Source of the DNA: an uncultured delta proteobacterium
GTDB lineage: Bacteria > Desulfobacterota > RBG-13-43-22
Length of the DNA: 64,000 bases
Direction: 5' to 3'
Assembly (NCBI GenBank): GCA_963843145.1
Contig: CAWJJC010000010.1
Span: 96,001 to 160,000 of the forward strand
Part shown: positions 2,831 to 59,400 of the stretch, piece by piece
Numbering within the stretch: the stretch's first letter is position 1
Layout: every line of letters starts with the position of its first letter
Program-made: the position numbers and the translations under genes
The notes under the pieces: model-generated
Told to the model about the DNA's origin: nothing
Seen by the model: only the letters and a program-made list of their open reading frames with translations
The model's database searches: none

Positions 2831-2844
2831 AAAAAACCCTCCCT

Positions 2845-18960: not shown

Positions 18961-18992
18961 AGGACCTCTATTTATCATTTCGAAATACAAAC

Positions 18993-26633: not shown

Positions 26634-26759
26634 GGTTTTTCTCCCCCCTTTTTGATGGTCCACTCTGGCTCATGCCCCGGAGGATCCGGGGTTGAGGAAA
26701 GGCCAGCGTTGAATCGGTTTTGCTCTCCGGGAACAGATCCGATTAGTAGAGACTCAGTT

Positions 26760-30710: not shown

Positions 30711-30894
30711 TTTCACCGCCAAGGCGCAAAGGGCGCAAAGGTATATATTTTAATTCGATCAATAACCGATCGAATTAAATTGAAATCAGAGTCTTAGAAA
30801 CGTATTAGCCGCAGGCCAAAGGCTTTTAAATTGGCCGCCCTCACGGCGGCCAATTTAAAAAATCTTTGCGGCCTTGGCGCCTTGGCGGCGAAAA
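30711..30894. repeat. CGCAAAG/CTTTGCG inverted-repeat element with two internal hairpins
   Basis: tttcaccgccaaggcgcaaagggcgcaaag...ctttgcggccttggcgccttggcggcgaaa. Inner hairpins are tttaattcgatc..gatcgaattaaa and ttttaaattggccgcc..ggcggccaatttaaaa. Confidence 0.8.
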
Positions 30895-30915
30895 TTTTAC
30901 TCTAAGGAATTGGAT

Positions 30916-34730: not shown

Positions 34731-36515
34731 ATGTCCCATTTTAGAGTGAACGAAAAGGATCTTTTTTTTATTTTGAAAAGCCAGTTGAATTACGGCAGTC
34801 TGTGCCGCTTGGACCGTTACCGGGAGCTGGATGAAGACACCTTGGACCTGCTGGTCAAGGAGGCTCTGAAATATGCCCGGACTGAAATTGCCCCACTCCA
34901 GGAGATCGGGGAAAACTGGGGGGTGGTCTTCGACCAGGGGGCGGTTCGCTGTGCTCCCGAGTTCAAACAGGCTTTCCGGCAATACGGTGAAAACGGCTGG
35001 ATTGCCGCGGCCCGGGCCCCGGAATACGGTGGCCAAGGATTTCCCCACATGACGCGCATCGTCATTAACGACCTGATGTATGGGGCTTGCCAGGCCTTTA
35101 ACATGGCCCCCAGCCTGACCCATGGGGCTGCTCACCTGATCGAAAACTTCGGGAGCCGGGAACTAAAGGAACGCTTTGTGCCGTCCATGTTCAGCGGGCA
35201 ATGGGCCGGGACCATGGCCCTCACCGAACCACAAGCCGGCTCCAACCTGGCCGCCATCCGGACCACCGCCATGCCCGAAGGCGAGCACTACCGGATCAAG
35301 GGCTCCAAGATCTTCATCTCCTGGGGAGACCACGACCTGACGGAAAACATCATTCACCTGGTCCTGGCCCGCATCGAAGGGGCGCCCGAAGGCGTCAAGG
35401 GCATTTCGCTGTTCGTCGTTCCCAAGGTCCGGATCAACCCGGACGGTTCCCTCGGGCAACCAAATGACGTGGTCTGCGGCGGCGTCGAAAAAAAACTGGG
35501 TCTCCACGCCTCGCCTACCTGTCAGTTGCTTTTCGGGGAACAAGACGGGTGTATCGGCTATCTGTGCGGCGAAGAAAACAACGGCCTGGCCCACATGTTC
35601 CAGATGATGAACGCCGCCCGTATCAATACCGGCGTGAGCGGAATGACCCTGGCCGGCAGCGCCTATCTCAACGCCCTGGCCTATGCTCGGGAGCGGATCC
35701 AGGGCTCGGATCTGGCCGGTCGCAAACCGGGCTTTGTCCCGATCATCGACCACCCCGACGTGCGGCGCATGCTGCTTTGGATGAAGGCTTCGGTGGATGG
35801 AATGCGTTCCATGATATACACCGGGGCCTACTGGTCGGACCTGGCTCTGGAGCTGCCCGAAGGGGAAGAGAAGAAACATTACCAGGCCCTGGTGGATTTT
35901 CTAACCCCGATCATCAAGGCCTACTGCTCGGATATGGGCTTTCGGGTCTGTGAAACCGCTATCCAGTGCCTGGGCGGCTATGGATTTTGCCGCGAGTACC
36001 CCCTGGAACAATACTTAAGAGATTCAAAGATCATGTCCCTTTACGAGGGTACCAACGGCATTCAGTCCGTCGACCTGCTGGGAAGAAAGATGCGGTTGAA
36101 TGGCGGGGCGCTGTTCAAGGCCTTCCTGTCCGAGATTCAGGAGTTCTGTAGGAAACATTCCTCCCAGCCCGTCCTTGGGTCGGAAATCCAGGCCCTGGCC
36201 AAGGCCGTGGAGCGATTGGCCGAAACCGCCCGTACACTGGCTGAAAAGATGAAAACCGATCCGCTCCAGTGGGCCTCCTATACCTACCCGGCCCTGCTGT
36301 GCTTTGGCGATATTACCATGGTCTGGCGACTCCTCGACCTGGCGGTCATCGCCCAGGAACAGATAGACTCCGGCAAGGGCACTGATTTTCTCTCCGGAAA
36401 AGTGGCTCAAGCCACCTACTTCACCGGGACGACCTTGCCGCTGACCCTGGCCCGGCTGGAGACCTGTCTGCGGTCCGGGCGGGAGGTAGTGGATATGCCG
36501 GAAGGGGCTTTCTAA
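34731..36515 (+). CDS. acyl-CoA dehydrogenase (long type, DmdC/FadE5-like)
   Basis: [45 protein letters not shown] and YEGTNGIQ. Confidence 0.93.
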   Translation: MSHFRVNEKDLFFILKSQLNYGSLCRLDRYRELDEDTLDLLVKEALKYARTEIAPLQEIGENWGVVFDQGAVRCAPEFKQAFRQYGENGWIAAARAPEYGGQGFPHMTRIVINDLMYGACQAFNMAPSLTHGAAHLIENFGSRELKERFVPSMFSGQWAGTMALTEPQAGSNLAAIRTTAMPEGEHYRIKGSKIFISWGDHDLTENIIHLVLARIEGAPEGVKGISLFVVPKVRINPDGSLGQPNDVVCGGVEKKLGLHASPTCQLLFGEQDGCIGYLCGEENNGLAHMFQMMNAARINTGVSGMTLAGSAYLNALAYARERIQGSDLAGRKPGFVPIIDHPDVRRMLLWMKASVDGMRSMIYTGAYWSDLALELPEGEEKKHYQALVDFLTPIIKAYCSDMGFRVCETAIQCLGGYGFCREYPLEQYLRDSKIMSLYEGTNGIQSVDLLGRKMRLNGGALFKAFLSEIQEFCRKHSSQPVLGSEIQALAKAVERLAETARTLAEKMKTDPLQWASYTYPALLCFGDITMVWRLLDLAVIAQEQIDSGKGTDFLSGKVAQATYFTGTTLPLTLARLETCLRSGREVVDMPEGAF

Positions 36516-36545
36516 TACGAAAATTGAGACGAAACGGAAAAATAA

Positions 36546-37994
36546 ATGGCCTTAAAAACAGGGGCGGAATACCTCGATTCCATCGAATCTTATGGGCTAG
36601 CGGCCCACATCCTGGGAAAAGAAACCAGCGACCTGACCGAACACGGCCTGGTCCAACCCTCCCGGCAGGCGGTGGCCTTTACCTATGATGCCGCCCACCA
36701 ATCGGAAACCCGGGATCTGTTCTGCGTCGAGTCACCGCTGTGTCAGGATACCGTGAACCGCTTCACCCATATTCACCAAAGCACGGAAGACCTGATCAAC
36801 AAAGTCAAGATGCAGCGCTACTGCGGCGTTCAGACCGCCTGCTGTTTTCAACGCTGCGTTGGACTGGACGCGGCCAACGCCATCTTCAGCACCACCTTTG
36901 ACTGCGACCGGAAGCACGGGACTTCCTATCACCAACGTTTCAGGGACTACTGGAAATCGATCCAGCAACAGGATCTGTTGGTGGACGGGGCCATGACCGA
37001 TCCCAAAGGGGACCGGGGGAAGCGCCCCAAGGACCAGCAGGACCCGGACCTGTACCTGCGGATCAAGGAACGCCGGTCGGGGGGCGTGGTGATCAGCGGG
37101 GCCAAACTCCATCAAACCGGCATGCTCAATTCCCACGAGATACTGGTCATGCCCACCCTGACGATGCGGGCGGGGGAAGAGGACTGGGCGGTCTGCTGCG
37201 CGGTTCCCACCAATGCCGAGGGCGTCCGGCACATCTACGGACGGCAGACCAGCGATACCCGGAAACTGGAAGCCTTTCCACTGGACAAGGGCAATCCCAC
37301 CTATGGCGGCCAGGAAGTGATGACCGTTTTTGAGGATGTATTTATCCCCGACGAACGCCTTTTCCTTAACGGGGAAGTCGATTTCTCCGGAATCCTGGTC
37401 GAGCGGTTCGCCTCCTATCACCGGCAGAGCTACGGGGGCTGCAAAGTCGGGGTAGGCGACGTCCTCATCGGAGCTGCGGCCTTGATCGCCCGGATGAACG
37501 GCGTATCGGAGGCCAGCCACATTAAGGATAAAATCGTGGAAATGATCCAGCTCAATGAAACGATCTATGCCTGCGGACTGGCCTGTTCCGCCACCGGTGA
37601 AAAGACCCCGGCCGGAAATTACCAGGTTAACCTGCTCCTGGCCAACGTCTGCAAGCTGAATGTCACCCGCTTCCCTTTCGAACTGGCCCGGCTGGCTACG
37701 GACATCGCCGGCGGCCTCCTGGGGACCATGCCTTCGGCCGCGGATCTGGATGACCCGGTGACCGGTCCCTATATCCAGAAATACCTGGCCGCCTCTCCGG
37801 GCAGTCGGGTGGTCGACCGCATGAAGGTGCTGCGCCTGATCGAAAACCTGGTGGCCGGCGCCGGAGCCGTGGGCTATCTCATCGAGTCCATGCACGGGGC
37901 CGGGCCCCCCATGGCCCAGCGGATCATGATCGGCCGTCAGGCCGACCTCGAGGGCAAGATCAGCCGGGTCGAGAAACTGCTGGGTTTGGTATGA
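36546..37994 (+). CDS. abfD: 4-hydroxybutyryl-CoA dehydratase / vinylacetyl-CoA isomerase-like FAD/[4Fe-4S] enzyme
   Basis: Cluster ligands in CFQRC and HRQSYGGC; GAMTDPKGDR, GAKLHQTG and ESMHGAG. Confidence 0.85.
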   Translation: MALKTGAEYLDSIESYGLAAHILGKETSDLTEHGLVQPSRQAVAFTYDAAHQSETRDLFCVESPLCQDTVNRFTHIHQSTEDLINKVKMQRYCGVQTACCFQRCVGLDAANAIFSTTFDCDRKHGTSYHQRFRDYWKSIQQQDLLVDGAMTDPKGDRGKRPKDQQDPDLYLRIKERRSGGVVISGAKLHQTGMLNSHEILVMPTLTMRAGEEDWAVCCAVPTNAEGVRHIYGRQTSDTRKLEAFPLDKGNPTYGGQEVMTVFEDVFIPDERLFLNGEVDFSGILVERFASYHRQSYGGCKVGVGDVLIGAAALIARMNGVSEASHIKDKIVEMIQLNETIYACGLACSATGEKTPAGNYQVNLLLANVCKLNVTRFPFELARLATDIAGGLLGTMPSAADLDDPVTGPYIQKYLAASPGSRVVDRMKVLRLIENLVAGAGAVGYLIESMHGAGPPMAQRIMIGRQADLEGKISRVEKLLGLV

Positions 37995-39109
37995 GCATGC
38001 TCTTCCAACCTTTTCCCCTAAAAAATTTAACCTTGCCTAACCGGTTTGTCCGGTCCGCCACTTATGACGGAATGTCTGGAAAAAACGGCCGGGTTACCTC
38101 CGAACAAATCCAAATGGTGGAGGATCTGGCCAAGGGCGGAGTAGGCCTGATCATTTTGGGCATTGCCTATGTGCAGGCCTCCGGTCAAATTTCAGTCTTC
38201 CAAAATTCTCTGGCCGACGACGATTGTATCCCGGGCTTCCGGAATTTGGCTGAAACCGCTCACGAACACGGCGCTAAAATTGCCGTCCAGTTGTTTCATG
38301 CCGGCAGGGAAACGGCCAAGGCCTTTAAACCCCATCGCAAGCAGGCCCTGGCCCCAGCCATCATCACCGATGACCCTTACTTCCAAGGGGCCTACCGGGC
38401 CATGACTGAGGAAGAAATCCTGGAGGTCATCGGGGCTTTCGGCGAGGCCGCCGGCCGAGCCCAAGAAGCCGGGCTGGATGCGGTTCAGGTCCACGGGGCC
38501 CATGCCTATCTGCTGAGCCAGTTCCTGTCCCCTTTCACCAACCGGCGGACCGATGCCTGGGGCGGGGACCTGGAAAACCGCCTGCGCCTTCACCGCGAAA
38601 TCCTGGGGGCCATCAGGTCCCGGGTAGGTGAAGCCTATCCAGTCCTGCTCAAGATCGGGGTCCAGGACGGGTTTCCCGGCGGACTGGAATTCCCTGAAGG
38701 GAAACAGGCCGCGCTTCGCCTGGCCCAGTGGGGCTACGACTCTTTGGAAATCAGCTCCGGACTGAGGGGCCAGGGGTATGATAACGCCGAATTCAAGACC
38801 CGCATCACCCGGCTGGACCGCGAAGCGTATTTCAGATCCTGGACCCGGGAAATAAAATCGGAAGTACCGGTCCCGGTCATGATGGTCGGAGGGATGCGGA
38901 CGCCGGCACTCATGGAAGAAGTGATTCAAAACGGCGAGGCCGACCTGATCTCCCTCAGCCGGCCACTCATCAAAGAACCGGCGATTATCAAAGACTGGCA
39001 AAACGGCGACCTCCACCGAGCCACCTGCATCTCCTGCAACAAATGCTTCGAGGCCCTGCTGAAGGGGGAGGCCCTGCGCTGTGTCTTTCACGAGGAAACC
39101 GGTCGGTAG
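37991..39109 (+). CDS. NADH:flavin oxidoreductase (old yellow enzyme family)
   Basis: NRFVRSAT, QLFHAG, HGAHAYLLSQFLSP, NRRTDAWGG and C-terminal CISCNKC. Confidence 0.92.
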   Translation: MSMLFQPFPLKNLTLPNRFVRSATYDGMSGKNGRVTSEQIQMVEDLAKGGVGLIILGIAYVQASGQISVFQNSLADDDCIPGFRNLAETAHEHGAKIAVQLFHAGRETAKAFKPHRKQALAPAIITDDPYFQGAYRAMTEEEILEVIGAFGEAAGRAQEAGLDAVQVHGAHAYLLSQFLSPFTNRRTDAWGGDLENRLRLHREILGAIRSRVGEAYPVLLKIGVQDGFPGGLEFPEGKQAALRLAQWGYDSLEISSGLRGQGYDNAEFKTRITRLDREAYFRSWTREIKSEVPVPVMMVGGMRTPALMEEVIQNGEADLISLSRPLIKEPAIIKDWQNGDLHRATCISCNKCFEALLKGEALRCVFHEETGR

Positions 39110-39141
39110 ATTCGTAGCACCCTGATACTGGCGTGCTCTTT

Positions 39142-39280
39142 AAATTCGAAATCCGAAGCACGAAATCCGAAATAAGCACGAAGGTCCAAAAATCCAAAAG
39201 ATCAAAACAAAGACGTTTCGAATTTTGAAATTTGGTCATTTGAATTTGTTTCGGATTTCGATATTCGGATTTCGGATTTG
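39142..39280. repeat. AAATCCG/TTCGGAT heptamer element, copy 3
   Basis: aaattcgaaatccgaagcacgaaatccgaaa...ggtcatttgaatttgtttcggatttcgatattcggatttcggattt. Confidence 0.8.
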
Positions 39281-39298
39281 AACTAAAAGGAGATTGAC

Positions 39299-40882
39299 AT
39301 GGGTAGTGGAAAGCACGATTTAGATCAAGGCTGGTTGTCGGAGGTCGAGGAACTTCGCCTTCGGGAACGTCTGGCGACCCAGATGGGCGGGGAGGAAAAC
39401 CTGGCCCGCCATCGGGCGGCCGGTCGTTTGAACGTCCGGGAGCGGATCGATCGTTTGCTGGATAAAGGCAGCTTCCACGAAACCGGCGCCATCACCGGGG
39501 TTCCCACCTGGAAGGAAGACCGCTTGGTCAAATTATTTCCCTCCAATTTTGTCCTGGGGACCGGGCGGATCGATCGGCGCCGGGTAGTGGTGGGGGCCGA
39601 CGACTTTACCATTCGCGGCGGAGCGGCCGATGCCGCCATCGGACACAAGGCGGCCTACGCCGAACGGATGGCCCTGGATCTTCGCCTGCCCATGATCCGC
39701 CTGGTGGACGGTACCGGAGGTGGAGGAAGCGTTAAATTTCTGGAGCAGATGGATCGCACCTACGTGCCTTACAACCCGGGCATGGACACCATGGCCGAGT
39801 TGCTTTCCACCGTGCCGGTAGTCAGCGCCGCCCTGGGATCGGTGGCCGGTCTGGGCGCGGCCCGGGTGGTCTTTTCCCATTTCTCGGTCATGCCCCGCAA
39901 AACGGCCCAGCTCTTTGTAGCCGGACCACCGGTGGTGGAACCGGCGCTGGGCCGGAAAGTGGGTAAGGAGGAACTCGGCGGGTCCCAAATCCAGACCGGC
40001 GGCTTCGGCGCCGTGGACAACGAGGTGGCCACCGAAGAAGAAGCCTTTGATCAGGTCCGCCGTTTTCTTTCCTACCTGCCGGATTCGGTCTATGAACTTC
40101 CTCCGGTTCAGGCGTCTTCCGATCCGGTCGACCGCCGCGAGGAGGAACTGATCCGCATCATCCCTAAAAACAAACGCCGACCCTACCCGGTGCGCCGCAT
40201 CCTGACGCTGGTGCTGGACCAGGGATCGTTTTTCGAGATCGGGGCCAAACATGGCCGTTCGGTGGTCACCGGCCTGGGTAGGCTGTCCGGCCGGCCGGTG
40301 GGGGTTTTCGCCCACGATTCCAACTTTTTCGGCGGCGCCATCACCGCCCAAGGGGCCGACAAGCTGGTTCGCTTCATCGATCTTTGCGACACCTTCCACC
40401 TGCCGGTGGTCAATTTTGTGGACAACCCGGGCTTCATGATCGGGGTGGAGGCGGAGAAACAGGGCACCATCCGCTTCGGGGCCCGCTACATCTTTGCCGT
40501 CTACCAGGCTACGGTCCCCTGGTGTTCCATCATCCTCCGGCGGGTCTACGGAGTCGCCGGAGCGGCCCATGGCAACCATTCCCGTCTCAACCTGCGTTAC
40601 GCCTGGCCTTCGGGCGAATGGGGCTCCCTGCCCATCGAGGGGGGCGTGCAGGCGGCCTACCGCCGACAGATCGAAGCCTCCGAAGATCCTCAGGCCCTGC
40701 GCCAGGAAATCGAGCAGCGTCTGTCGAAGTTCACCTCCCCCTTCCTGACCGCCGAGAAGTTCGGCATTGAGGAGATCATCGACCCTCGCGACACCCGGCC
40801 GCTGCTCTGCGAATGGGTTGAAAATGCCTACCGCCTGCTGCCCAGCCAGTTGGGGCCGAAAAAACGGGGTATGCGTCCTTAA
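39299..40882 (+). CDS. acyl-CoA carboxylase/decarboxylase carboxyltransferase subunit
   Basis: RERIDRLLDKGSF, DDFTIRGG, LFVAGPPVV, FVDNPGFMIG and IIDPRDTR. Confidence 0.92.
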   Translation: MGSGKHDLDQGWLSEVEELRLRERLATQMGGEENLARHRAAGRLNVRERIDRLLDKGSFHETGAITGVPTWKEDRLVKLFPSNFVLGTGRIDRRRVVVGADDFTIRGGAADAAIGHKAAYAERMALDLRLPMIRLVDGTGGGGSVKFLEQMDRTYVPYNPGMDTMAELLSTVPVVSAALGSVAGLGAARVVFSHFSVMPRKTAQLFVAGPPVVEPALGRKVGKEELGGSQIQTGGFGAVDNEVATEEEAFDQVRRFLSYLPDSVYELPPVQASSDPVDRREEELIRIIPKNKRRPYPVRRILTLVLDQGSFFEIGAKHGRSVVTGLGRLSGRPVGVFAHDSNFFGGAITAQGADKLVRFIDLCDTFHLPVVNFVDNPGFMIGVEAEKQGTIRFGARYIFAVYQATVPWCSIILRRVYGVAGAAHGNHSRLNLRYAWPSGEWGSLPIEGGVQAAYRRQIEASEDPQALRQEIEQRLSKFTSPFLTAEKFGIEEIIDPRDTRPLLCEWVENAYRLLPSQLGPKKRGMRP

Positions 40883-41086
40883 CCCAAAGTTTTTTTCTGC
40901 AGGTCGGAGGTTTGCCGGTCAAAAAGTGGTTTGTGCTAGAAGTCAGGAAGAAATCTCTCGCCCGCTGCGTTCTCTGTGGTCTCTGTGAGAGATTGCCCTT
41001 GTCTTTTTCCGCGGATTTCGAATTTCGTTGCGGCTATGCTGCTCTGAGTGGGTCCGTGGCAAGAAATTATAGAAAAGGAGTTCATT

Positions 41087-42241
41087 ATGGACTATGAGAT
41101 CCCGGAAAGCCTGCGCCTGATGCGGGAGACGATCCGCCGCTTCGTGAATCAGGACCTGGAGCCCCTTTCCCAACAAGTGGAGGACGAGGATCATATCCCG
41201 GAGGAGATCGTCCAAAAAATGCGGGAATTGGGGCTGTTCGGCCTTTCCATCCCGGAGGAATACGGGGGATTGGATCTGGGGACCTTCGGCGAATGTCTGG
41301 TCTATGAAGAATTGACCAAAACCAATGCGGCCTTCCGTTCCCGTATCGGCACCAGCAACGGGATCGGCTCCATGGGGATCCTCCTGGACGGCACCGAGGA
41401 GCAGAAACAGAAATACCTTCCCCGGATTGCCAGTGGGGAATGGACCGCCTGTTTGGCCCTGTCGGAACCGGAAGCGGGGTCGGATGCCGGGAACATCCAG
41501 ACCACAGCCGAGCGACAGGGAGAGACCTTTGTGATCAACGGCCTCAAGCACTTCATCACCAACGGCGACGTAGCCGACGTCGCCACTGTCCTGGCCGTGA
41601 CCGACAAGCAAAAACGAACCCGCGGCGGGATCACGGCTTTCGTGATTGAAAAGGGGACTCCGGGCTTTTCGGTAGGAACTATCGAACGGAAGATGGGGCT
41701 CCGGGGCAGCCACACCTGCGAACTGATCTTTGATGATTGCCGCGTCCCGGTCGAGCAGGTGATCGGTGGGGAAGCGATGATCGGCCAGGGGTTTAAGACC
41801 GCCATGCGGGTGCTCGACAAAGGCCGCCTGACCATGGGGGCCTGCGCCCTCGGCGGGGCCCAGAAGCTCCTGGATTTATCCGTGGCCTATGCCCGGCAGC
41901 GGGTTCAATTCGGCAAACCCATCGCCCAATTCCAGTCCGTTCAGAACATGCTGGCCGATATGGCCACCGAGATCTATGCCGCCCGGCAGATGCTCTACCA
42001 CGCCGCTTCCCTGCGGGACCAGGGCCGGACGGTGATCAAGGAAGCCTCCATGGTCAAACTCTTTTGCACGGAGATGGCCTGCCGGGTGGCCGATCGGGCC
42101 GTCCAGATTTTCGGCGGCATGGGCTACATGAAGGATTTCCCGGTAGAGCGGTTTTACCGGGACCTCCGCCTGTACCGGATTTACGAAGGGACCAGCGAGA
42201 TCCAGCGGATGGTCATCGCCCGGGAGCTGACCAAAGAATAG
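41087..42241 (+). CDS. acyl-CoA dehydrogenase (short/branched-chain type)
   Basis: IPEEYGG, LSEPEAGSDA, KHFITNG, RVQFGKPI, FGGMGY and IYEGTSEIQR; AAGGAG RBS before ATG 41087. Confidence 0.95.
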   Translation: MDYEIPESLRLMRETIRRFVNQDLEPLSQQVEDEDHIPEEIVQKMRELGLFGLSIPEEYGGLDLGTFGECLVYEELTKTNAAFRSRIGTSNGIGSMGILLDGTEEQKQKYLPRIASGEWTACLALSEPEAGSDAGNIQTTAERQGETFVINGLKHFITNGDVADVATVLAVTDKQKRTRGGITAFVIEKGTPGFSVGTIERKMGLRGSHTCELIFDDCRVPVEQVIGGEAMIGQGFKTAMRVLDKGRLTMGACALGGAQKLLDLSVAYARQRVQFGKPIAQFQSVQNMLADMATEIYAARQMLYHAASLRDQGRTVIKEASMVKLFCTEMACRVADRAVQIFGGMGYMKDFPVERFYRDLRLYRIYEGTSEIQRMVIARELTKE

Positions 42242-43933: not shown

Positions 43934-44293
43934 TTAGGATACGGGCTTATTGTTTTGCAGAGCTTCAAAAAACTTTTGGCAGACCGCCTCTAATGGATCG
44001 AGTTTATTCTGGACCACATCCCAAACGATGGGTAAATTGATCCCAAAATATTCATGAACCAGAATATTCCGCATTCCGGTAATTTTACGCCAATCTATCT
44101 TGCAAGTCGTTTCTTTAAAACTATCCGGTAGGCTTTTCGCTGCCTCGCCAATAATCTCCAGGTTCCGGGCTACGGCATCCTGGGTTTTTCTATCGTTGGC
44201 AAACGATTTTTCGTCTTGGCCTTCGACATAGGACCTGATTTGCTTTATCGCCTCAAGAATGTCATCGAGGTAAAGGCGATAGTCCCTAGACAT
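43934..44293 (-). CDS. HepT-like HEPN ribonuclease toxin (DUF86)
   Basis: LEIIGEAA and the Rx4HxY motif RNILVHEY; overlaps the MNT stop. Confidence 0.92.
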   Translation of the reverse strand: MSRDYRLYLDDILEAIKQIRSYVEGQDEKSFANDRKTQDAVARNLEIIGEAAKSLPDSFKETTCKIDWRKITGMRNILVHEYFGINLPIVWDVVQNKLDPLEAVCQKFFEALQNNKPVS

Positions 44294-44573
44294 AGACCGC
44301 CTCACCGGCGATGATCGGCCGAAGACGGGGTTTCAATGAGTCAGCCAAAACCAGGTCCACAGACCTTCTAAGTTGGTCCTCCAGAAAAAATTTCAAATCC
44401 ATATAATGATCCAAAGTCGGTTGGGCCAACTCTACTAAAATATCTATATCGCTCTGGTCGTCGGCGGAACCATGCAGAAAAGAGCCAAACAATCCGATAC
44501 GCTTAACGGTGAACCGCCTCTCGATCTCACTTTTGTTTTTTTTTAAAAAATCGACAATCTTTTCACTATCCAT
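44286..44573 (-). CDS. MntA-like minimal nucleotidyltransferase antitoxin
   Basis: GSx10DxD motif (GSFLHGSADDQSDID) and VDLV. Confidence 0.92.
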   Translation of the reverse strand: MDSEKIVDFLKKNKSEIERRFTVKRIGLFGSFLHGSADDQSDIDILVELAQPTLDHYMDLKFFLEDQLRRSVDLVLADSLKPRLRPIIAGEAVYV

Positions 44574-44786
44574 TTTAATAATCCACCTCCCTGTCTCCTA
44601 AAAATTACCGCCCCAATCTATCCTAGAGGATAAAAAGGCCCTTCCTCTGAGAATGAGAAAAGGGCCTTAGGATTCCATTAAGTCCTCCCCGGTAAAGTTG
44701 GGCGAATAAATAGAAAAAAAAATTAATTAGATAACTTCTAATAGCACGACTTACCCTGACTGTCAATCATGGGCCTTCAAATCTGG

Positions 44787-47639
44787 TCAATCATACATCT
44801 CCTGCAGCAACTCCAGAATTTTCCGCCGGCTGGGGGTGGTGGGATCGGTGGCCATATTCACCGCGTCGCGCGAGGTGTAAAAGGCGATCTTCTCCAGGTC
44901 CCCTTGGGGAATTCCCTCGGCCTTCAGGCTGATGCGGATATCGAGCTTCTCGTAGAAGGCCAGCAGGCTTTCCAGGAGGTCGTTGGAGCGGTTCAACATC
45001 TGGGCCAGATCGGTAAAGGGGTCCTTACAGGTGTCCCGGTTGGCCCGGACAAAGCCGAGGAGGCCGTAGATGGCCGCCCGACCGTGGGGCAGATGGTAGT
45101 GGGCGCCCAGCACATGGGTAATGGCATGGCCGATCCCCAGGCCTTTCAGAAAGGCCAGGCCGCCGCAGAGGGCCGCCATGCACAGGTCGGTCCGGGCGGC
45201 GATATCCTCCCCGTCCCGATAGGCCCGGGGGAGGCTGCGCCCGATCAGTTTAACCCCGTAAACCGCCATGGACTCGAAGTAGGGGTGGTAGGGGGTGGCC
45301 AGGGAAACATAGCCCTCGACGCAGTGGGCCAGGGCGTCGATACCGGAGGCGATGGTCAGTCCGGGCGGCATAGTCCGGCAGAACAGGGGATCGATGACCG
45401 CCACCCGCGGGATCAGGTGATTGCTCATCAAAACCAGTTTCAGGTCCCGTTCCTTATCGGTAATCACCGCGCAGGGGTTGACCTCGCTTCCCGTCCCGGA
45501 AGTAGTCGGCAGGCAGAGGATCGGCGGTAGAATCGGCTTGATTTTGCCGCCTCCGCCCACAATCCCTTCAAATTCCCTCAGGTCCCCGGAGTGGGTGACC
45601 TGCAACCCGAGGGCCTTGGCCGTATCCATCGAACTGCCGCCGCCCAGGCCGAGAATGCCGTCACAGCCTGATTCGATATACAGCCGCCCGGCTCGTTCGA
45701 TGAGTTCGATGGGAGGATCGGGCTCCACCTCCGAAAAAACAACCGTTTCGATACCCCGAGGCTCAACGATCCGGCGGATCTCGTCCGCCCGCCCCAGGGA
45801 ATACATGACCGGATCGGTAACGATAAACAGTTTCCTGACCTGAAGACGCTTCAGGACTTCCCCCATTTTTCCCGCCACCCCGGCGCCGAACAGCGTTTCC
45901 GGCAGGGGCGGGATGCGGATTTCCCAGATCTTTTCTTTTTCCTGAAAGGAGTCCAGCCCGGCCCAGAAATGCGTGATCTCGGCCTCCTCCACATCGAAAA
46001 CCTGGTGGGTCGGGGCAACCGCCTCCTCGCGAATAAAGGCGGCCTCCCGGGTGTCCCCCCGGCTGAATTCGGCCTTTCCATTGAAAGCGAGCTGATCCCT
46101 AAGCGTCTGTTTGCCGATCTCCAGGACATCCGCGGGCGTCCACCGGCCCCCGTAGCGGGCGTTCAACAGATCGGCCAGGAAGGGATAGAGGGAAACCCGT
46201 CCGCCGGGAACGGCATTCAGGCAGTAGCCGAAAGCGTCACAGACGGCGGCCTGGACCTGGGCCTTGAGCGAATTCTCCGCTTGTTTCGTTCGGCTGAGGG
46301 GAATCCGGTAGGTCAGCCCGGCCGTGTGATCCGCGCCCATGGGGCTGGTGTAATAGGTGACCCCGGTTCCCTTGGTCGATCGGGGATCATGGCCGGGCAG
46401 GGCCTGCCCTTTATAGGCGGGCACCCGGCTGACGCCCAGGTATTGGGCGGTGGCCACCACCCCGTTTCCCAGGGCCCGGCCCAACGGCGTTTCCCGTTCC
46501 ATTTCTTCCAGCAGCCGCGCGGCCGAGGACCAATCGCCGAAGGTCATTTTCCCGGCCTCCGCCGCCAGGCCCAAAGCGCTGCCGGTTTCGATGGCATCGA
46601 CCCCCAGATCGTCGCAAAGGAATTTGAGCCGGGCAATGGCATCCGGATCGGTGATGCCCAGATTGCTTCCCAGCAGGGCGATAGTTTCATATTCATACGC
46701 CGAGCAGATCCGTTTCCCTTCCTGATCGGGATAGATGATGGAACAGCGGACCACGCAGCCGGGCATACAGCCGTGCATCCGGCCGCCCCGCTCAAAAAGG
46801 ATTTTCTGGATGCTGTTGCCGCTTACGGCGATAAAATCTTCGGGCCGGCCCGAACGGTAATTCAGGGTCGGCAAGGTCCCCTGGCTGGCGGAATTGGAAA
46901 CGGCGAAAGGCGTGCCGAAGCGGGAATAAAGGCTGCAACTCACATCGTGTTTGAGGGTGTTGACCCAGGATTTCACCCGCCGGCGAAAGGCCTCCGGATC
47001 GGCCGTCGCCACCGGACCGGTCTTTGCGGGATCGATGATAATGGCCTTGAGCCCCTTGGACCCCATCACGGCCCCGAGCCCTCCCCGGGCGGCATTCCGC
47101 GAGGGATCCCCGAACAGATCGGTCAAGGAGACCGAGGCCCCCCGGTATTTCCGCTCTCCCGCCGGGCCGGTAGAGATGATCGCCGTCTTTTCCCCGTGCT
47201 TTTCCCTCAGTCGCCCGGCCAGTTCGTAATTTTTAAGGCCCCGGTATTCCTCGGCCGGGATCAAGGCCGCCCGATCCCCGGAGATCGATAAGACGGTTAA
47301 GCGGCCATCCGGCGGAGCGCCGTGAACAACGATGGCGCGAATCCCCAGCCGGTCGAGGAATTGTCCGGCCGGGCCTCCGGCATTGGCCTCTTTGATCCCC
47401 AGCGTCAGGGGACTCTTGGCCCCGACGGAGATGCGCCCAAGCTGGGGCGCCCCGGTGCCGGCCAGGGGGCCGACGGCCACAATAAAGGCATTCTCGGGAC
47501 CCAGGGGATCCACCGCCGGCGGGACCTCCCGGTTCATGATCCGGGCCAACAATGCGCTGCCGCCGATGGGCAGCCAGTCCTCCCGGAGGCCCTCAAATTC
47601 AATCGTTCCCGTTTCCATGTTTAATCGCAGCAGCTTCAT
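44787..47639 (-). CDS. fusion protein: aldehyde:ferredoxin oxidoreductase (W/Mo-pterin) plus iron-containing alcohol dehydrogenase
   Basis: The first ~560 aa have KSPLT, EANAGG, RGGLGAVMGSKGLKA, CMPGCVVRC, EYET, CDDLGVD, GADHT and DAFGYC. The last ~380 aa have GGGSSMD, PTTSGTGSE, DALAHCVE and HAITH...HG. Confidence 0.92.
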   Translation of the reverse strand: MKLLRLNMETGTIEFEGLREDWLPIGGSALLARIMNREVPPAVDPLGPENAFIVAVGPLAGTGAPQLGRISVGAKSPLTLGIKEANAGGPAGQFLDRLGIRAIVVHGAPPDGRLTVLSISGDRAALIPAEEYRGLKNYELAGRLREKHGEKTAIISTGPAGERKYRGASVSLTDLFGDPSRNAARGGLGAVMGSKGLKAIIIDPAKTGPVATADPEAFRRRVKSWVNTLKHDVSCSLYSRFGTPFAVSNSASQGTLPTLNYRSGRPEDFIAVSGNSIQKILFERGGRMHGCMPGCVVRCSIIYPDQEGKRICSAYEYETIALLGSNLGITDPDAIARLKFLCDDLGVDAIETGSALGLAAEAGKMTFGDWSSAARLLEEMERETPLGRALGNGVVATAQYLGVSRVPAYKGQALPGHDPRSTKGTGVTYYTSPMGADHTAGLTYRIPLSRTKQAENSLKAQVQAAVCDAFGYCLNAVPGGRVSLYPFLADLLNARYGGRWTPADVLEIGKQTLRDQLAFNGKAEFSRGDTREAAFIREEAVAPTHQVFDVEEAEITHFWAGLDSFQEKEKIWEIRIPPLPETLFGAGVAGKMGEVLKRLQVRKLFIVTDPVMYSLGRADEIRRIVEPRGIETVVFSEVEPDPPIELIERAGRLYIESGCDGILGLGGGSSMDTAKALGLQVTHSGDLREFEGIVGGGGKIKPILPPILCLPTTSGTGSEVNPCAVITDKERDLKLVLMSNHLIPRVAVIDPLFCRTMPPGLTIASGIDALAHCVEGYVSLATPYHPYFESMAVYGVKLIGRSLPRAYRDGEDIAARTDLCMAALCGGLAFLKGLGIGHAITHVLGAHYHLPHGRAAIYGLLGFVRANRDTCKDPFTDLAQMLNRSNDLLESLLAFYEKLDIRISLKAEGIPQGDLEKIAFYTSRDAVNMATDPTTPSRRKILELLQEMYD

Positions 47640-47818
47640 ATCGGCACTTCCTTTGAATAATCAAGATTTAAGGGCGCTATCCTATCATAATGCCCACCGC
47701 AAGTCCAAAGGGATGCGGCAGCAGAGGTCATAAAATTCTTAAGTTTTAGTCCTCGGCTCCGATAATCAGCTAGGGCCGTCGGCCATACTATTTAACATTT
47801 TTTGCAAGGGGGAAAATA

Positions 47819-53731: not shown

Positions 53732-55607
53732 ATGCGTGACGTTCAAGATCTTTCCATCTGTAAAGATGCCCAGCTTATGCTGAAGAAGGCGGCCGAAGAC
53801 GGCGTCGAGACCGTCTGGGACCGGTATCTAAAACAGCAGCCCCCCTGTGGCTATTGTGAACTGGGGCTCTCCTGCCGCAACTGCGTCATGGGGCCTTGCC
53901 GGATCGATCCCTTCGGGGAAGGGCCGCAACGAGGCGTTTGCGGCGCCGATGCCGATATCATCGTCGCCCGCAACCTGGCCCGGATGATCGCGGCCGGGGC
54001 GGCTTCCCATTCCGACCACGGGCGTGACCTGGTGGAGGTTTTGCATAAAATCGGCCAAGGTCAGGCCCCGGGCTATGCCATCAAGGACCCGGAAAAAATG
54101 AGACGCCTGGCGCTGGAGTACGGGGTCCCGACCGATAACCGCGAAACCCAGGCCATCGCCCTGGACTTGGCGGAAGCGATGATGGAAGACTACGGGATGA
54201 AGAAATCCCAGATTACCCTGGTCAACCGGGCACCAAAGCAGCGCCTGGATCTCTGGAAAAAATTTCGGGTCCTGCCCCGGGGCATTGACCGGGAGACCTC
54301 GGAGATGATGCACCGGACCCATATGGGCGTGGACAACGACTGGGTCTCCCTGCTCTTGCAGGCGGTCCGCAACAGTCTCTCCGATGGTTATGGCGGGTCC
54401 TTGATCGGCACCGAAGTGTCGGACATCATCTTCGGCACGCCTCAGCCGGGGATGTCCGAGGTAAATCTGGGGGTGCTCAAGGAAGATCGGGTCAACATCG
54501 TGGTCCACGGCCACAGCCCCGTCGTATCCGAGATGATCTGCCTGGCGGCCGAGGACCCGGAGATGATCGCCCTGGCCCAATCCAAAGGCGCCCGGGGGAT
54601 AAACCTGGTCGGGCTCTGCTGCACGGGCAACGAACTGACGATGCGCCGCAAGATCCCCATGGTCGGCAACCACCTGATGACCGAACTGACCCTGGTCACC
54701 GGGGCGGTGGAAGCCATGATCGTCGACTACCAATGCATTATGCCCTCCCTCGGGACAGGTGGCTCAGTGTTACCATACTCGAATGTATTCGACCTCGGAC
54801 AAGGCGAAATTCCCCTTCATGGAACACGTGGAATTCAATCCCGGCAACGCTAAAGAACAGGCCTACCGGATCGTCCGGGAGTCCATTGAAAATTTTACCC
54901 GCCGGGTCCCAGGGAAGGTCAACATCCCGGTCGAACCGGTCAGGACCATGACGGGTTTTTCGGTGGAGGCTATCGTCGGGGCCCTCGGCGGGACACTTAC
55001 GCCGCTGATTGAGGCCATCAAGGCCGGCAAGATCAAGGGCGCCGTGGGGGTGGTCGGCTGCAACAATCCCAAGGTCAAGCAGGACTACGGCCATGTGGAG
55101 TTGATCAAACGTCTGATCGCCAACGACATATTGGTTCTGACCACCGGCTGCGTCAACGTGGCCGCCGGCAAGGCCGGGCTGCAGGCCCCCGAGGCTAAAG
55201 ACCTGGCCGGTCCGGGCCTAAAGGAAATATGCGGCGCCTTGGGGATTCCGCCTTCCCTCCACCTGGGATCCTGCGTGGACAATTCGCGGATCCTGGTCAT
55301 TGCCTGCGCCCTGGCCAACGCCCTGGGAGTGGACATCAGCCAACTGCCCCTGGCCGGTTCGGCGCCGGAATGGTATTCCGAAAAGGCGGCGACAATCGCC
55401 TTCTACGTCATGGCCAGCGGGATCTTTACCCATCTCGGGGTCATGCCCCCTATTTTGGGGAGCAAGAAGGTCACCGAACTGGCCACCCAGGGACTGAACG
55501 ACGTCTTCGGGGCCTGCTTCGCCGTGGAACCGGACCCCATCAAGGCCGCCGAGTTGATTACTAATCACATCCTGGAAAAGCGAAAAGCTTTAGGTCTCAG
55601 CGTTTAG
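53732..55607 (+). CDS. cooS: anaerobic Ni,Fe carbon monoxide dehydrogenase catalytic subunit, frameshifted near 54754
   Basis: CGYC..SCRNCVMGPC, HSDH, HGH, CCTGNE and DYQC in 53732..54853; GCNN, TGC, GSCVDN and SEKA in 54759..55607. Confidence 0.93.
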
Positions 55608-56452: not shown

Positions 56453-59400
56453 ATGAATGACCAAAGGGATCCCCTCTCCCCATTCCATCCCCTGATCCGC
56501 AAGTGGTTTACGGAAAGGCTGGGTGCGCCAACCAATATACAGTCACGTCGCCTGGCCGGAAATTGCCCTCGGAAGACACGTTCTGGTGACGGCGCCTACG
56601 GGCAGCGGCAAGACGCTGACGGCCTTCCTCTGGGCCATCAACCAACTGGTCACCGGCGCCTGGGTCACCGGCCGGACGCGCGTCCTCTATGTCTCGCCCT
56701 TAAAAGCGCTGAATAATGATATCCGGCGCAACCTGGCCAATCCCCTGGGGGAACTTCGCTCGTACTTCACGAAGGCCGGCGAGGAGTTTCCGCCTATCGG
56801 CCTGCTGACGCGCAGCGGCGATACGCCGGCGGAAGAACGGCGGCGGATGCGGCGCCGGCCGCCGGAAATCCTGATCACCACGCCGGAAAGCCTGAATCTC
56901 CTTTTGAGTTCCCGGAGCGGCCGGGAGATGCTGACCGGGATTGCCACGGTGATCCTGGATGAGATCCACGCCGTGATCGGCACCAAACGGGGGACCCATC
57001 TGATTACGGCCGTCGATCGCCTGGTCCGCCTTTCCGGCGAATTCCAGCGACTGGCCCTGTCGGCCACGGTGAAGCCCCTGGCCATCGTAGCCGAGTTTAT
57101 CGGCGGGTCCATGCTAAAGGGCGAAGGGCCCTCCGGGTATTATGAAAAACGGAACGTTTCGATTATTAAATCGAAGGACACCAAGCGCTATGGGATCGAG
57201 GTCCTTTTCCCTCCGGACGTCCGGGAACAGCCGGCCGACGCCTCCCGGTGGCCGGTCCTGGCTGCCGCCTTCCGGGAAGTCATTCGGGCCCACCGCTCCG
57301 TCCTGCTCTTTGCCAACAGCCGCCGCCTGGCGGAAAAGGTCACCCGCCTGATCAACGAAGGTCTAGCGGAAGAGCTGGCCTACTCCCACCACGGCTCCCT
57401 CTCCCGGGAGATCCGCCTGGCAGTGGAACAGCGTTTGAAAAATGGCGAACTGCGGGCCATCGTCGCCACCAGTTCCCTGGAGCTCGGCATCGATATCGGC
57501 GAACTGGATCTCGTCGTGCTTATCCAGACGCCGCCCTCCATATCCGCGGCCATCCAGCGGATCGGGCGTTCCGGCCACCGCGTCGGAGGGGTGAGCCGCG
57601 GCCTGCTCTATCCCACCCACGGGATTGATTTTCTGACCGCCGCCGTTATCGCCAAGAGCATCACGGATCAGGATATCGAAGCCGTCCGGCCCATCGAAGG
57701 TCCGCTGGACGTATTGGCCCAGGTGATCCTTTCCCTGACCGGTTTGGAACAATGGGATATGGATGAACTGTTCTCCTTCATAAAAACCAGCTACCCCTAC
57801 CGGCGCCTCCCCCGCCGGCAATTCGACCTGGTCCTGGAAATGCTGGCCGGGGGATACGCGGAAACGAGGCTCCGGGAACTTAAACCGCGCCTCTCCCTGG
57901 ATAAACTCGATAGCACCGTCCACGGCCGGGAGGGGGTGCTGCGTTTGCTCTATCTCTCGGGCGGAACCATCCCGGACCGCGGCTATTATGATTTGCGGCT
58001 GGCGGATTCCAAGGCCAAGATAGGCGAACTGGACGAAGAATTTGTCTGGGAACGGAGCCTCGGCGACACCTTCACCCTGGGCGCCCAGGTTTGGCGGATT
58101 CAGAAGGTGACCCACAACGAGGTAGAGGTGCTGCCGGCGGAGGTCAAACCTGGCATCTTCCCCTTCTGGAAGGCCGAGGACTTGAATCGGGATTTTCACT
58201 TTTCGGAAAAGATCCTGCTGTTCCTGGAACGATTCCAGACTCGGCCTGAAGTTTCCGTTTGGAAAGAGGAACTGCGGCGGGAATATTTCATGGAGAGAGG
58301 CGGCGGCGGACGAACTCCTCGGGTTTCTAAAAAGACAACAGGAAGCGACCCGGTCCGAGCTCCCTCACCGGCATCATCTGCTGATCGAGCACTTCCAGGA
58401 TCCCCTGAACCCCGCGGACGGCCGGCAAGTTATTCTACATACGCTCTGGGGCGGAAAAATCAACCGGCCTTTAAGCCTGGCCCTGCAGGCGGCTTGGGAA
58501 GAGAAGACTCGACACTCGTCTGGAAATCTTCCAGAATAACGACGGCCTCTTATTCCTGCTGCCGGACGACGTTTCCGCCGCGGAGGTCCTGACCCTGGTG
58601 ACGCCGGAAAACCTGGAACGGCTGCTCCGGCGGACGCTGGAGCAGAGCGGGTTTTTCGGGGCGAAATTCCGGGAAAACGCCGGCCGGGCACTGTTGCTCC
58701 CCCGCGGGGATTTTAAAAAACGCCTGCCCCTCTGGCTGAACCGGCTCCGGTCCAAGACGCTGTTGGAGGCCGTTCGGGTCTATCCGGATTTTCCCATTTT
58801 GCTGGAGACCTGGCGCACCTGCCTGCAGGATGAGTTCGACCTGGACCATCTAAAGCAACTGCTCGACGAAATCCGTGGCGGTCGGATAAAGATCACCGAG
58901 GCCGTCACTACCGCGGCCTCTCCCTTCGCCGACGGCCTGGTCTACCGGCAGACCAATGCCTATATGTATGCGGACGACACGCCCCGGTCGGAGAAAGCCT
59001 CTGCCTTGAGCCAGGAACTGCTGAAAGAAGTACTGTTTTCCCAGCGCCTCCGGCCGCGCCTTTCCCCGGACCTCAGCGCCGCGCTGGAGGAAAAGCTGAA
59101 GCGAACGACCCCGGGCTACGCCCCCCGATCGGCGGCCGACCTCCTGGACTGGGTCAAAGAGCGGCTCCTGATCCCGGCGCCGGAGTGGCAGGAGCTTAAA
59201 GAGGCCATGGGTCGTGATCGCGGGAGTTCGCCGGACGACCGAATCACAACCATCAGAGAAAAGATCGTCTCCCTGCGGCTGCCCGGGGCCTCGCTGGACC
59301 TGATTGGCGCCATAGAAAATCTGGGCCGGATCACCAAGGCCTTTCAAATCCAACCCGGGAAGTTGACGGTTCGGGATGTATTTTCCGGTGCCCCCTTGTC

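Follow-up and report, generated by a model that had tools for sequence, protein, structure and literature searches.

A conserved single-chain fusion of a short-type aldehyde:ferredoxin oxidoreductase with an iron-containing alcohol dehydrogenase in anaerobic bacteria

In a 64,000-nt window (the whole stretch of DNA analysed here, from contig CAWJJC010000010.1 of an uncultured delta proteobacterium), we identified a minus-strand gene whose product joins an aldehyde:ferredoxin oxidoreductase (AOR) to an iron-containing alcohol dehydrogenase (Fe-ADH, or ADH) in one polypeptide. Coordinates given below are those of the window and residue numbers those of the 950-aa fusion protein. The fusion is real and is conserved in many anaerobic bacteria. 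Judged on sequence and predicted structure together, the explanation that on balance appears most probable for the whole is a genuine bifunctional enzyme that would interconvert alcohols and acids without CoA, with omega-hydroxyacids as tentatively favoured substrates.

The gene is a single unbroken open reading frame (ORF) of 950 codons plus stop, starting with ATG. ORF calling and the four Pfam domains recognised along its translation confirmed the claim of an earlier note on this DNA that one frame joins an AOR to an iron ADH. The gene and its features, all on the minus strand, are as follows.

44787..47639 (-), whole AOR-Fe-ADH fusion gene, one ORF with four Pfam domains
47647..47653 (-), Shine-Dalgarno-like AAGGAAG, 7 nt before the ATG, from direct reading of the sequence
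47031..47636 (-), AFOR_N (PF02730), pterin-binding N-terminal AOR domain, residues 2–203; Pfam E 2e-56, aligns to 1aor
46041..46952 (-), AFOR_C (PF01314), AOR domains 2 and 3, residues 230–533; Pfam E 8e-49, aligns to 1aor and 1b25
46743..46769 (-), predicted [4Fe-4S] motif C291-x3-C295-x3-C299, residues 291–299; Cys kept in 74 of 74 copies
45900..46019 (-), junction, residues 541–580, from the end of the AOR fold to the first ADH strand, placed by alignments of stand-alone relatives
45387..45899 (-), Fe-ADH N-terminal NAD-binding domain (PF00465), residues 581–751; Pfam E 6e-46 and structure alignments
44793..45356 (-), Fe-ADH C-terminal helical domain ADH_Fe_C (PF25137), residues 762–949; Pfam E 2e-35 and Foldseek
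44639..44663 (-), terminator-like hairpin with T-run, 124 nt past the stop, from a consensus scan; weak and suggestive at most

Each domain scored above its Pfam gathering cut-off, with 191.3 bits for AFOR_N (cut-off 29.8), 167.2 for AFOR_C (27), 156.6 for Fe-ADH (31.3) and 122.5 for ADH_Fe_C (27); the AFOR_C match covers profile positions 11–337 out of 385. All the motifs quoted in the earlier note were located, namely CMPGCVVRC (291–299), GYC (471–473), GGGS (666–669), DALAH (768–772), HAITH (838–842) and PHG (851–853), and the pterin motif DDLGVD corresponds to residues 343–348. The junction sequence that it had quoted is likewise present and free of stops, and the next Met after it sits inside the ADH fold. 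Promoter and terminator consensus scans around the gene returned no more sites than shuffled sequence, and the hairpin is graded as suggestive for this reason.

A word-indexed search of 5.8 billion proteins returned 1281 matches, from which the best 120 clusters, drawn from four sources, were listed. All of these were 936–966 aa long and covered 99–100% of the query at 75–93% identity, with the same Pfam set. In a genome scan limited to one genome per species, 138 species genomes contained a relative and 80 loci were kept. The match extends from query residue 1 to at least residue 940 in 72 of these loci; of the remaining eight, seven run into the end of a contig and one copy, that of L059, has been shortened internally. 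ORF calling across the 80 loci and the window, followed by BLAST clustering and annotation of recurrent families, identified the fusion ORF in 80 of the 81 sequences, and the one missed (L070) carries an intact 951-aa copy. The full-length AFOR_N, AFOR_C and Fe-ADH architecture, which the earlier note had suggested looking for in other genomes, is thus present in the best 120 clusters listed and in 72 of the 80 loci, and homologues are not confined to separate genes. A search among shorter proteins for stand-alone orthologues of the ADH half gave mostly pieces from short contigs and a few proteins of 400–517 aa on long contigs whose context was not visible; this demonstrates neither a split form nor its absence. 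The hosts of the 80 loci are mostly metagenome-assembled genomes (MAGs) of Syntrophales, Smithellaceae and Desulfobacterales, that is, syntroph-type Thermodesulfobacteriota.

In a codon comparison with five relatives the junction was collinear, gap-free and in frame, and over residues 541–585 the synonymous and nonsynonymous codon changes numbered 9 and 3 against the closest relative (L001), 8 and 5 against L002 and 5 and 8 against L066. Stand-alone AORs end near query residues 556–565 and ADH alignments begin at 569–582, so the two folds adjoin without a long linker, stop or start. Among 74 full-length copies (the window copy and 73 from the loci), mean column conservation was similar across the modules (0.77–0.81) and stood at 0.72 in the junction. 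The shared frame in the 120 listed clusters, the 72 full-length loci and the in-frame synonymous changes at the junction bear out the earlier view that this is a natural fusion and no merging error.

The AOR half is most similar among solved structures to Pyrococcus furiosus AOR (PDB 1aor), to which it is ~29% identical by alignment and Foldseek; query residues 3–539 aligned to residues 8–559 of 605. In this alignment T243, E318, H438 and C473 correspond to Thr243, Glu313, His448 and Cys494, which serve as active-site residues and ligands in that enzyme. The motifs D343-x-x-G-x-D348 and D468-x-x-G-x-C473 match the two pterin motifs of 1aor, the second of which includes Cys494. The AFOR_C domain holds T243, E318, H438, D343–D348, D468–G471 and C473, the predicted fourth cluster ligand. 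Domain content, pterin motifs and the active-site Glu, His and Thr all identify this half as a member of the AOR/WOR family. The four predicted cluster ligands (C291, C295, C299 and C473) are invariant in all 74 copies, as are E316, E318, H438, D343, G346, D348, D468 and G471, and T243 is invariant in a 36-row alignment.

The cluster motif of this half, C-x3-C-x3-C, is one residue longer than the canonical C-x2-C-x3-C and produces a single-residue gap against FOR (PDB 1b25). We compared the AOR half with its relatives through an exhaustive HMMER search of 1.84 billion representatives, in which the 950-aa family collapses to one 50% cluster. The nearest stand-alone AORs are mostly 557–594 aa long, share 35–46% identity and align to query residues 1 to ~556–565; among the best 150 representatives, 85 AOR-only proteins span most of the AOR half, the majority again 557–594 aa long. 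Most stand-alone short AORs (75 of 82) share the C-x3-C-x3-C spacing. Truncation of the AOR half was considered and rejected, and because its nearest stand-alone relatives are themselves mostly of this length, the half is complete for its subfamily. By these sequence comparisons it belongs to a short (~570 aa), unstudied AOR subfamily characterised by the C-x3-C-x3-C motif. The description of this half as a complete AOR in the earlier note therefore stands for the short subfamily and needs a qualifier otherwise: it is short-type, has variant Cys spacing and lacks a close solved relative, 1aor being the best. The accessible part of a 2025 review of tungsten enzymes mentions no fusions and leaves some hypothetical-AOR branches unlabelled (PMC12096430).

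The ADH half aligned over its full length with NAD-dependent methanol dehydrogenases (8zrl, 213 bits), 1,3-propanediol dehydrogenases, FucO and the ADH domains of AdhE. Its GGGS, TTSGTGSE, D-x3-H and H-x3-H...PHG motifs align to the same motifs in solved Fe-ADHs (8zrl, 8zwd, 4fr2 and 3bfj; 3zdr also aligned), and the domains, GGGS, TTxGTGSE and the Asp/His/His/His ligand set identify it as an iron-containing (group III) ADH. The N-terminal domain of this half carries D609, GGGS (666–669) and TTSGTGSE (712–719), and the C-terminal domain carries the predicted metal ligands D768, H772, H838 and H852, plus H842. Residues G666–S669, T712–S718, D768, H772, H838, H842 and H852 are invariant in the 74 copies, and T712–E719 are conserved in 73–74 of them. 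D609, the NAD-type Asp after strand 2, is conserved in 73 of 74; an Asp at this position usually marks a preference for NAD rather than NADP, which suggests that the ADH half uses NAD(H). Each catalytic and cofactor residue checked in either half is thus kept in 74 of 74 copies, with D609 in 73, in agreement with the earlier note that both domains look intact.

The AlphaFold2 model of the whole chain, built from the 36-row alignment, had a mean predicted local distance difference test (pLDDT) score of 87.3 and a predicted template modelling (pTM) score of 0.87, with pLDDT 68–85 across the junction. Foldseek matched the AOR half at TMt 0.79–0.80 (1aor, 9g7j) and the ADH half at TMt 0.89–0.92 to FucO, DhaT, ADH2 and methanol dehydrogenases; no PDB chain or complex covering both halves was found by Foldseek, the best query TM being 0.52. 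When the halves were folded as separate chains they were predicted to dock, with a score of 0.80 against 0.00 for the best control. Among 80 solved complexes 58 attained this score, and among 110 mismatched pairs 2 did; this calibration is approximate since our own alignment was used. The docking runs share at least 92% of their contacts, with partner pLDDT of at least 90. The structure prediction that the earlier note had called for thus yielded a defined predicted interface, formed by residues 230–253, 270–282, Y444 and 543 on the AOR side and 686–694, 728–733, 780–781 and 917–935 on the ADH side. On the AOR side these segments lie to either side of the catalytic T243 and close to H438, an arrangement compatible with the ADH being seated over the AOR substrate entrance. 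Residues 411–442 (about 46314–46409) form a highly conserved loop leading to H438, which probably needs cofactor to fold.

The 950-aa family is not the only combination of these two enzymes. Pfam identified three further, divergent AOR-ADH proteins (P0126, P0130 and the fragment P0160) and three proteins of 1004–1029 aa in the reversed order ADH-AOR (P0202, P0222, P0239). We placed 99 AOR domains on a tree (IQ-TREE quick search, LG+G4). The distribution of the AOR-ADH proteins on it requires three changes, which could be one gain and two losses, and the ADH-AOR proteins form one further clade (SH-aLRT 100). Because 82 stand-alone rows are interleaved on this tree, we read the pattern as repeated fusion, with AOR/Fe-ADH fusions in at least four separate clades, one of them reversed. 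The reversed fusions carry the canonical C-x2-C-x3-C motif and so derive from another AOR subfamily. The ESM Atlas contains a 1038-aa ADH/AFOR cluster of 198 members; among the few members with a record, Spirochaetota is the commonest phylum. An unfused pair of adjoining Fe-ADH (383 aa) and AOR (584 aa) genes was observed in L066 (4939–8137), ~1.9 kb upstream of the fusion of the same genome and only ~29–33% identical to the fusion halves. Two paralogues of the fusion are present in some genomes of Smithellaceae and Syntrophaceae (L028 6929–12850, L034 and L036, in tandem; L075 12069–14369), each 61–71% identical to the halves of the window copy; the tandem paralogues suggest duplication with diversified specificity.

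Taken together, the intact sites, the conserved direct junction, the predicted docking and the repeated fusion lead us to regard as likely a bifunctional enzyme that interconverts alcohol, aldehyde and acid with NAD(H) and ferredoxin and passes the aldehyde between docked sites. The N-terminal module would be a short-type tungsten- or molybdenum-pterin, [4Fe-4S] aldehyde:ferredoxin oxidoreductase, and the C-terminal module an NAD(H)-type iron ADH joined to it nearly without a linker and packed onto it. Overall, a primary alcohol would be converted reversibly into its carboxylic acid with the transfer of four electrons. At the Fe site, alcohol and NAD+ would be in exchange with aldehyde and NADH; at the pterin site, aldehyde, water and two oxidised ferredoxins would be in exchange with acid and two reduced ferredoxins. 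Neither CoA nor ATP would take part. In both directions the first step would be uphill and the second downhill, so that the free aldehyde would have to stay very low, and fused sites could let it go straight from one to the other by the logic seen in AdhE.

This chemistry is that of the known AOR-ADH pathway, in which acid and aldehyde are interconverted with ferredoxin at a tungsten-pterin AOR and aldehyde and alcohol with NAD(P)H at an ADH, without CoA or ATP, as described in PMC10816221 and PMC12096430. The pathway of Thermoanaerobacter sp. X514, acetogens and engineered P. furiosus employs the same two families for the same overall chemistry. However, its enzymes are separate proteins of fermenters and acetogens, whereas here they form one polypeptide with a predicted fixed interface, mostly in syntroph-type Thermodesulfobacteriota, and the AOR is of the short C-x3-C-x3-C type, distant in sequence from P. 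furiosus AOR.

The comparison with AdhE made in the earlier note holds in the sense of two redox steps via an aldehyde on one polypeptide. In AdhE an Fe-ADH domain is likewise fused to an aldehyde-forming or -consuming domain for consecutive redox steps, and the ADH half of the fusion aligns to AdhE ADH domains (3zdr, 6tqh and others). The partner in AdhE, however, is a CoA-acylating, NAD-dependent aldehyde dehydrogenase (ALDH) acting on acyl-CoA, whereas the partner here appears to be a metallopterin/[4Fe-4S] AOR acting on the free acid with ferredoxin. The Pfam scan of the fusion protein detected no ALDH domain, and the NCBIfam AdhE model matched the ADH part only, at 197 bits against a cut-off of 951; the protein is not an AdhE because the ALDH domain is absent. 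Aromatoleum AorABC (8c0z) and the electron-bifurcating tungstopterin aldehyde oxidoreductase (9mqx), both among the structure-search matches, also couple an AOR subunit physically to a pyridine-nucleotide site. In those complexes NAD(H) is the AOR's own electron partner via Fe-S and FAD subunits, whereas the NAD site of the fusion would belong to a second catalytic centre for aldehyde and alcohol, with no flavin or extra Fe-S domain recognised by Pfam.

In line with the statement in the earlier note that no characterised example was known, Foldseek found no solved structure of such a fusion, and no description of one was found in the full-text literature searched, which included the accessible parts of PMC12096430, PMC10816221, PMC13685792 and PMC8892533 and did not extend to subscription journals. 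The fusion therefore is apparently unstudied, with the chemistry of the AOR-ADH pathway and the design logic of AdhE.

The surroundings of the gene in other genomes provide some indication of substrate. A gene of the 4-hydroxybutyryl-CoA dehydratase (AbfD) family immediately precedes the fusion, in the same orientation, in 14 loci and is present anywhere in the examined stretch in 19 of 80. A 611-aa acyl-CoA dehydrogenase (ACAD) lies directly downstream in 15 loci, and a thiolase two genes upstream in 12. Two operon types recur. The first, mainly in Smithellaceae, is composed of thiolase, AbfD, fusion, long ACAD, thiolase, a thiamine pyrophosphate (TPP) enzyme (PRK07586-like) and a PIG3-type oxidoreductase. 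The second comprises thiolase, a glutaryl-CoA dehydrogenase-like protein, both subunits (beta, then alpha) of succinyl-CoA ligase, carboxyltransferase, the beta subunit of a Na+-decarboxylase, the fusion, long ACAD, enoyl-CoA hydratase and succinate dehydrogenase/fumarate reductase; the fusion here has succinyl-CoA ligase, glutaryl-CoA dehydrogenase and glutaconyl-CoA-decarboxylase-like genes on one side and succinate dehydrogenase on the other. Other contexts feature DctP, HAMP, dienelactone hydrolase, SnoaL and SDR genes, Liv-type ABC transporters, or nothing recurrent. Relatives of such recurrent neighbours are present in the window.

36546..37994 (+), AbfD (4-hydroxybutyryl-CoA dehydratase/vinylacetyl-CoA isomerase), E 7e-179 to 1u8v; convergent with the fusion, 6.8 kb away
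34731..36515 (+), long acyl-CoA dehydrogenase of 594 aa with Acyl-CoA_dh_C extension, by Pfam

The window AbfD and the gene that immediately precedes the fusion in the 14 loci are of one family. The window AbfD keeps the residues aligned to the cluster ligands Cys99, Cys103, His292 and Cys299 of 1u8v, and on this sequence evidence is a bona fide AbfD. BLAST clustering groups the 594-aa ACAD with the 611-aa gene that immediately follows the fusion in 15 loci. Both are part of a plus-strand cluster at 34731–42241, 2.5–10 kb off and convergent with the fusion, that also contains an OYE-family flavin reductase, a 527-aa carboxyltransferase and a 397-aa ACAD. In L001, members of the AbfD, long-ACAD and carboxyltransferase families are likewise found downstream of the fusion. 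Directly downstream of the window fusion, at 43934–44573 (-), we observed a toxin-antitoxin pair of a HepT-like RNase and an MNT nucleotidyltransferase. In L001, ORFs of such a size are absent from the corresponding place, so it appears that the pair was inserted between the fusion gene and the cluster with AbfD.

The earlier note had also tied the fusion to CoA-ligase genes of the window, and this link was not supported: those genes are at least 12 kb off and split, the fusion stands alone in the window, and its recurrent neighbours elsewhere are AbfD, long ACAD and thiolase.

Further observations concern these operons. In L020 (16132–18709) and eight other loci, the TPP enzyme and the PIG3-type quinone oxidoreductase follow the fusion operon (8–9 loci). 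The TPP enzyme resembles the PRK07586 "acetolactate synthase large subunit" (633 bits), with a weaker match to benzoylformate decarboxylase; if it is a 2-oxoacid decarboxylase, it would make an aldehyde and may feed the fusion. Full-length copies were also observed in MAGs titled Dehalococcoidales or Chloroflexota (L065, L074, L076). The copy in L065 has AbfD directly upstream and groups with a Desulfobacteraceae copy on the AOR tree, which could reflect lateral transfer of the gene pair or mis-binning.

From the occurrence of AbfD, succinyl-CoA ligase, succinate dehydrogenase and glutaryl-CoA genes around the fusion, together with two precedents, we tentatively propose as substrates an omega-hydroxy acid, its semialdehyde and the dicarboxylate, chiefly 4-hydroxybutyrate, succinate semialdehyde and succinate. 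In Clostridium aminobutyricum, the first precedent, abfD lies in a cluster with a 4-hydroxybutyrate dehydrogenase of the Fe-ADH type; the second is P. furiosus FOR and its preference for C4–C6 semialdehydes. The AbfD of the window itself, and the rank of the 4-hydroxybutyrate dehydrogenase model as second among the NCBIfam matches of the ADH half (238 bits), point the same way. The main candidate reaction would be the reversible conversion of 4-hydroxybutyrate via succinate semialdehyde to succinate, with 5-hydroxyvalerate, glutarate semialdehyde and glutarate as a possible C5 analogue, and such substrates would connect succinate or glutarate metabolism to crotonyl-CoA and beta-oxidation. The succinate/4-hydroxybutyrate route of Clostridium kluyveri and C. 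aminobutyricum proceeds through SucD, 4-hydroxybutyrate dehydrogenase, a CoA-transferase and AbfD, and its AbfD gene adjoins an Fe-ADH-type dehydrogenase much as AbfD adjoins the fusion in the 14 loci. However, the semialdehyde in that route is made from succinyl-CoA by a CoA-dependent dehydrogenase, whereas the AOR here would use free succinate and ferredoxin.

A bolder extension, which we consider rather unlikely, is that in syntrophic Thermodesulfobacteriota the fusion and AbfD connect free succinate (or glutarate) with crotonyl-CoA by a shunt that is independent of CoA and linked to ferredoxin and NAD. If this were true, a tungsten-type AOR would be a central-carbon enzyme, and these energy-limited bacteria would have a reversible pathway close to equilibrium. 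Such a pathway would do without succinyl-CoA reductase and could spare the cells the expensive conversion of succinate to fumarate, or serve to build C4 units from acetyl-CoA. The fusions in at least four clades and in both orders would then imply that direct aldehyde hand-over is near obligatory for AOR-ADH chemistry at low aldehyde. A role of the fusion in propionate dismutation via reductive carboxylation to succinate was considered and dropped. A 13C study of Smithella propionica by de Bok in 2001 reportedly excluded CO2 incorporation. PMC13685792 reports no methylmalonyl-CoA mutase orthogroup.

Several observations weigh against the proposed enzyme and its substrates. The neighbourhoods are heterogeneous, with 61 of 80 loci lacking AbfD within the stretch examined, and many AbfD-linked loci come from related Smithellaceae, so that the 14 are not independent events. 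In the loci no 4-hydroxybutyrate CoA-transferase was seen beside the fusion, just a divergent AMP-forming ligase in six, and no ferredoxin gene adjoins it. In the window the gene is monocistronic, between the HepT/MNT pair and a Cache-domain gene. The ADH half scores under the curated cut-off of every NCBIfam equivalog: its best match is the regulatory ErcA (NF041833; 256.2 bits against 550) and its second-best the 4-hydroxybutyrate dehydrogenase (NF058672; 238.4 bits against 500), and it belongs to neither by these cut-offs. Falling below the NF058672 cut-off lowers family membership and not action on 4-hydroxybutyrate. In the model, residues 411–416 and 426–442 around the pterin site have pLDDT below 50, the sole such stretches. 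Finally, conservation at the predicted interface did not stand out from the mean of the protein (0.80 against 0.78 and 0.79 against 0.77); 33–34% of random residue sets scored as high, and interface conservation was dropped as support for docking.

The alternative that fares best retains the bifunctional chemistry and assigns it a broad range of ordinary aliphatic and aromatic alcohols and aldehydes, the AbfD adjacency being one lineage-specific recruitment; the fusion would then serve fatty or short-chain alcohol oxidation into beta-oxidation, or aldehyde detoxification. We regard this as possible, at about the same tentative level as the omega-hydroxyacid substrates. Characterised AORs are broad in range according to PMC12096430, the ADH half finds its best solved matches in methanol and 1,3-propanediol dehydrogenases, and genes for beta-oxidation and for acyl-CoA ligases abound in the window. 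The variety of neighbourhoods, with their SDR/hydrolase sets, Liv transporters and beta-oxidation genes, also fits a broad range, as do the paralogues, tandem in L028, L034 and L036, that suggest diversified specificity. However, the commonest immediate neighbours are AbfD and the long ACAD, in 14 and 15 loci, rather than fatty-alcohol or ligase genes, and the AbfD-fusion pair is kept even in the Dehalococcoidales MAG of L065.

Less probable is a mainly reductive role, in which the fusion would act as an electron sink converting acid, reduced ferredoxin and NADH to alcohol, a single-protein version of the AOR-ADH pathway. The hosts, being mostly Syntrophales, Smithellaceae and Desulfobacterales, are better known for syntrophic acid oxidation than for alcohol production, and the operon partners are catabolic beta-oxidation genes. 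On the other side, the separate-enzyme pathway is established in Thermoanaerobacter and acetogens (PMC10816221), and the overall reaction would be near equilibrium, with its direction set by metabolite pools; reaction direction cannot be read from sequence.

It is very unlikely that one half is non-catalytic, either as an ErcA-like regulatory or scaffold ADH module or as an AOR devoid of cluster or pterin owing to its Cys spacing. ErcA does top the NCBIfam matches of the ADH half, but at less than half its cut-off, and although C-x3-C-x3-C departs from the canonical motif, this spacing is the norm in the short-AOR subfamily. The low confidence of 411–442 near the pterin site would be expected in a cofactor-free model, and the metal, NAD, cluster, pterin and catalytic residues are retained throughout the copies as described above.

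An artefact, by which two adjacent genes were merged through an assembly or indel error at the junction, has a negligible probability and is rejected for the family: other window genes are indeed split as by frameshifts, so that the assembly has indel errors or pseudogenes, but the same ~950-aa frame recurs in the listed clusters and in loci of independent assemblies, the junction is collinear with synonymous substitutions, and the whole chain is modelled with high pTM. The split or truncated-looking genes lie at 1182–2860 (-), 30874–32626 (+), 23257–24576 (-), 53732–55607 (+) and 56523–60961 (+). Three are AMP-binding (acyl-CoA ligase) genes, of which two each occupy a pair of overlapping ORFs and one is truncated; a prismane/hybrid-cluster-family gene lies in two frames (profile positions 2–289 and 292–512) and an Lhr helicase in two ORFs. 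These are either assembly indel errors or pseudogenes.

The bifunctional reading that we prefer has consequences beyond this locus. To our knowledge, no biological route other than AOR with ADH turns free carboxylic acids into alcohols without a need for ATP or CoA, and such a route is in demand for the production of alcohols from acids and syngas. A single-chain version that occurs naturally in many genomes would be a ready-made, experimentally tractable candidate catalyst and a test case for aldehyde channelling beyond AdhE. By "Rosetta stone" reasoning, the repeated fusion in both orders speaks strongly for AOR and Fe-ADH being functional partners in many anaerobes. The fusion also points to a subfamily of short AORs that is unstudied and, in Smithellaceae and Syntrophaceae, to a recurrent operon that is uncharacterised. 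The carbon metabolism of these bacteria is still partly unassigned; according to PMC13685792, none of the enzymes of propionate dismutation has ever been identified.

Elsewhere in the window, two paralogous DUF362 proteins of ~450 aa are encoded among beta-oxidation genes at 17638–18990 (-) and 25305–26663 (-).

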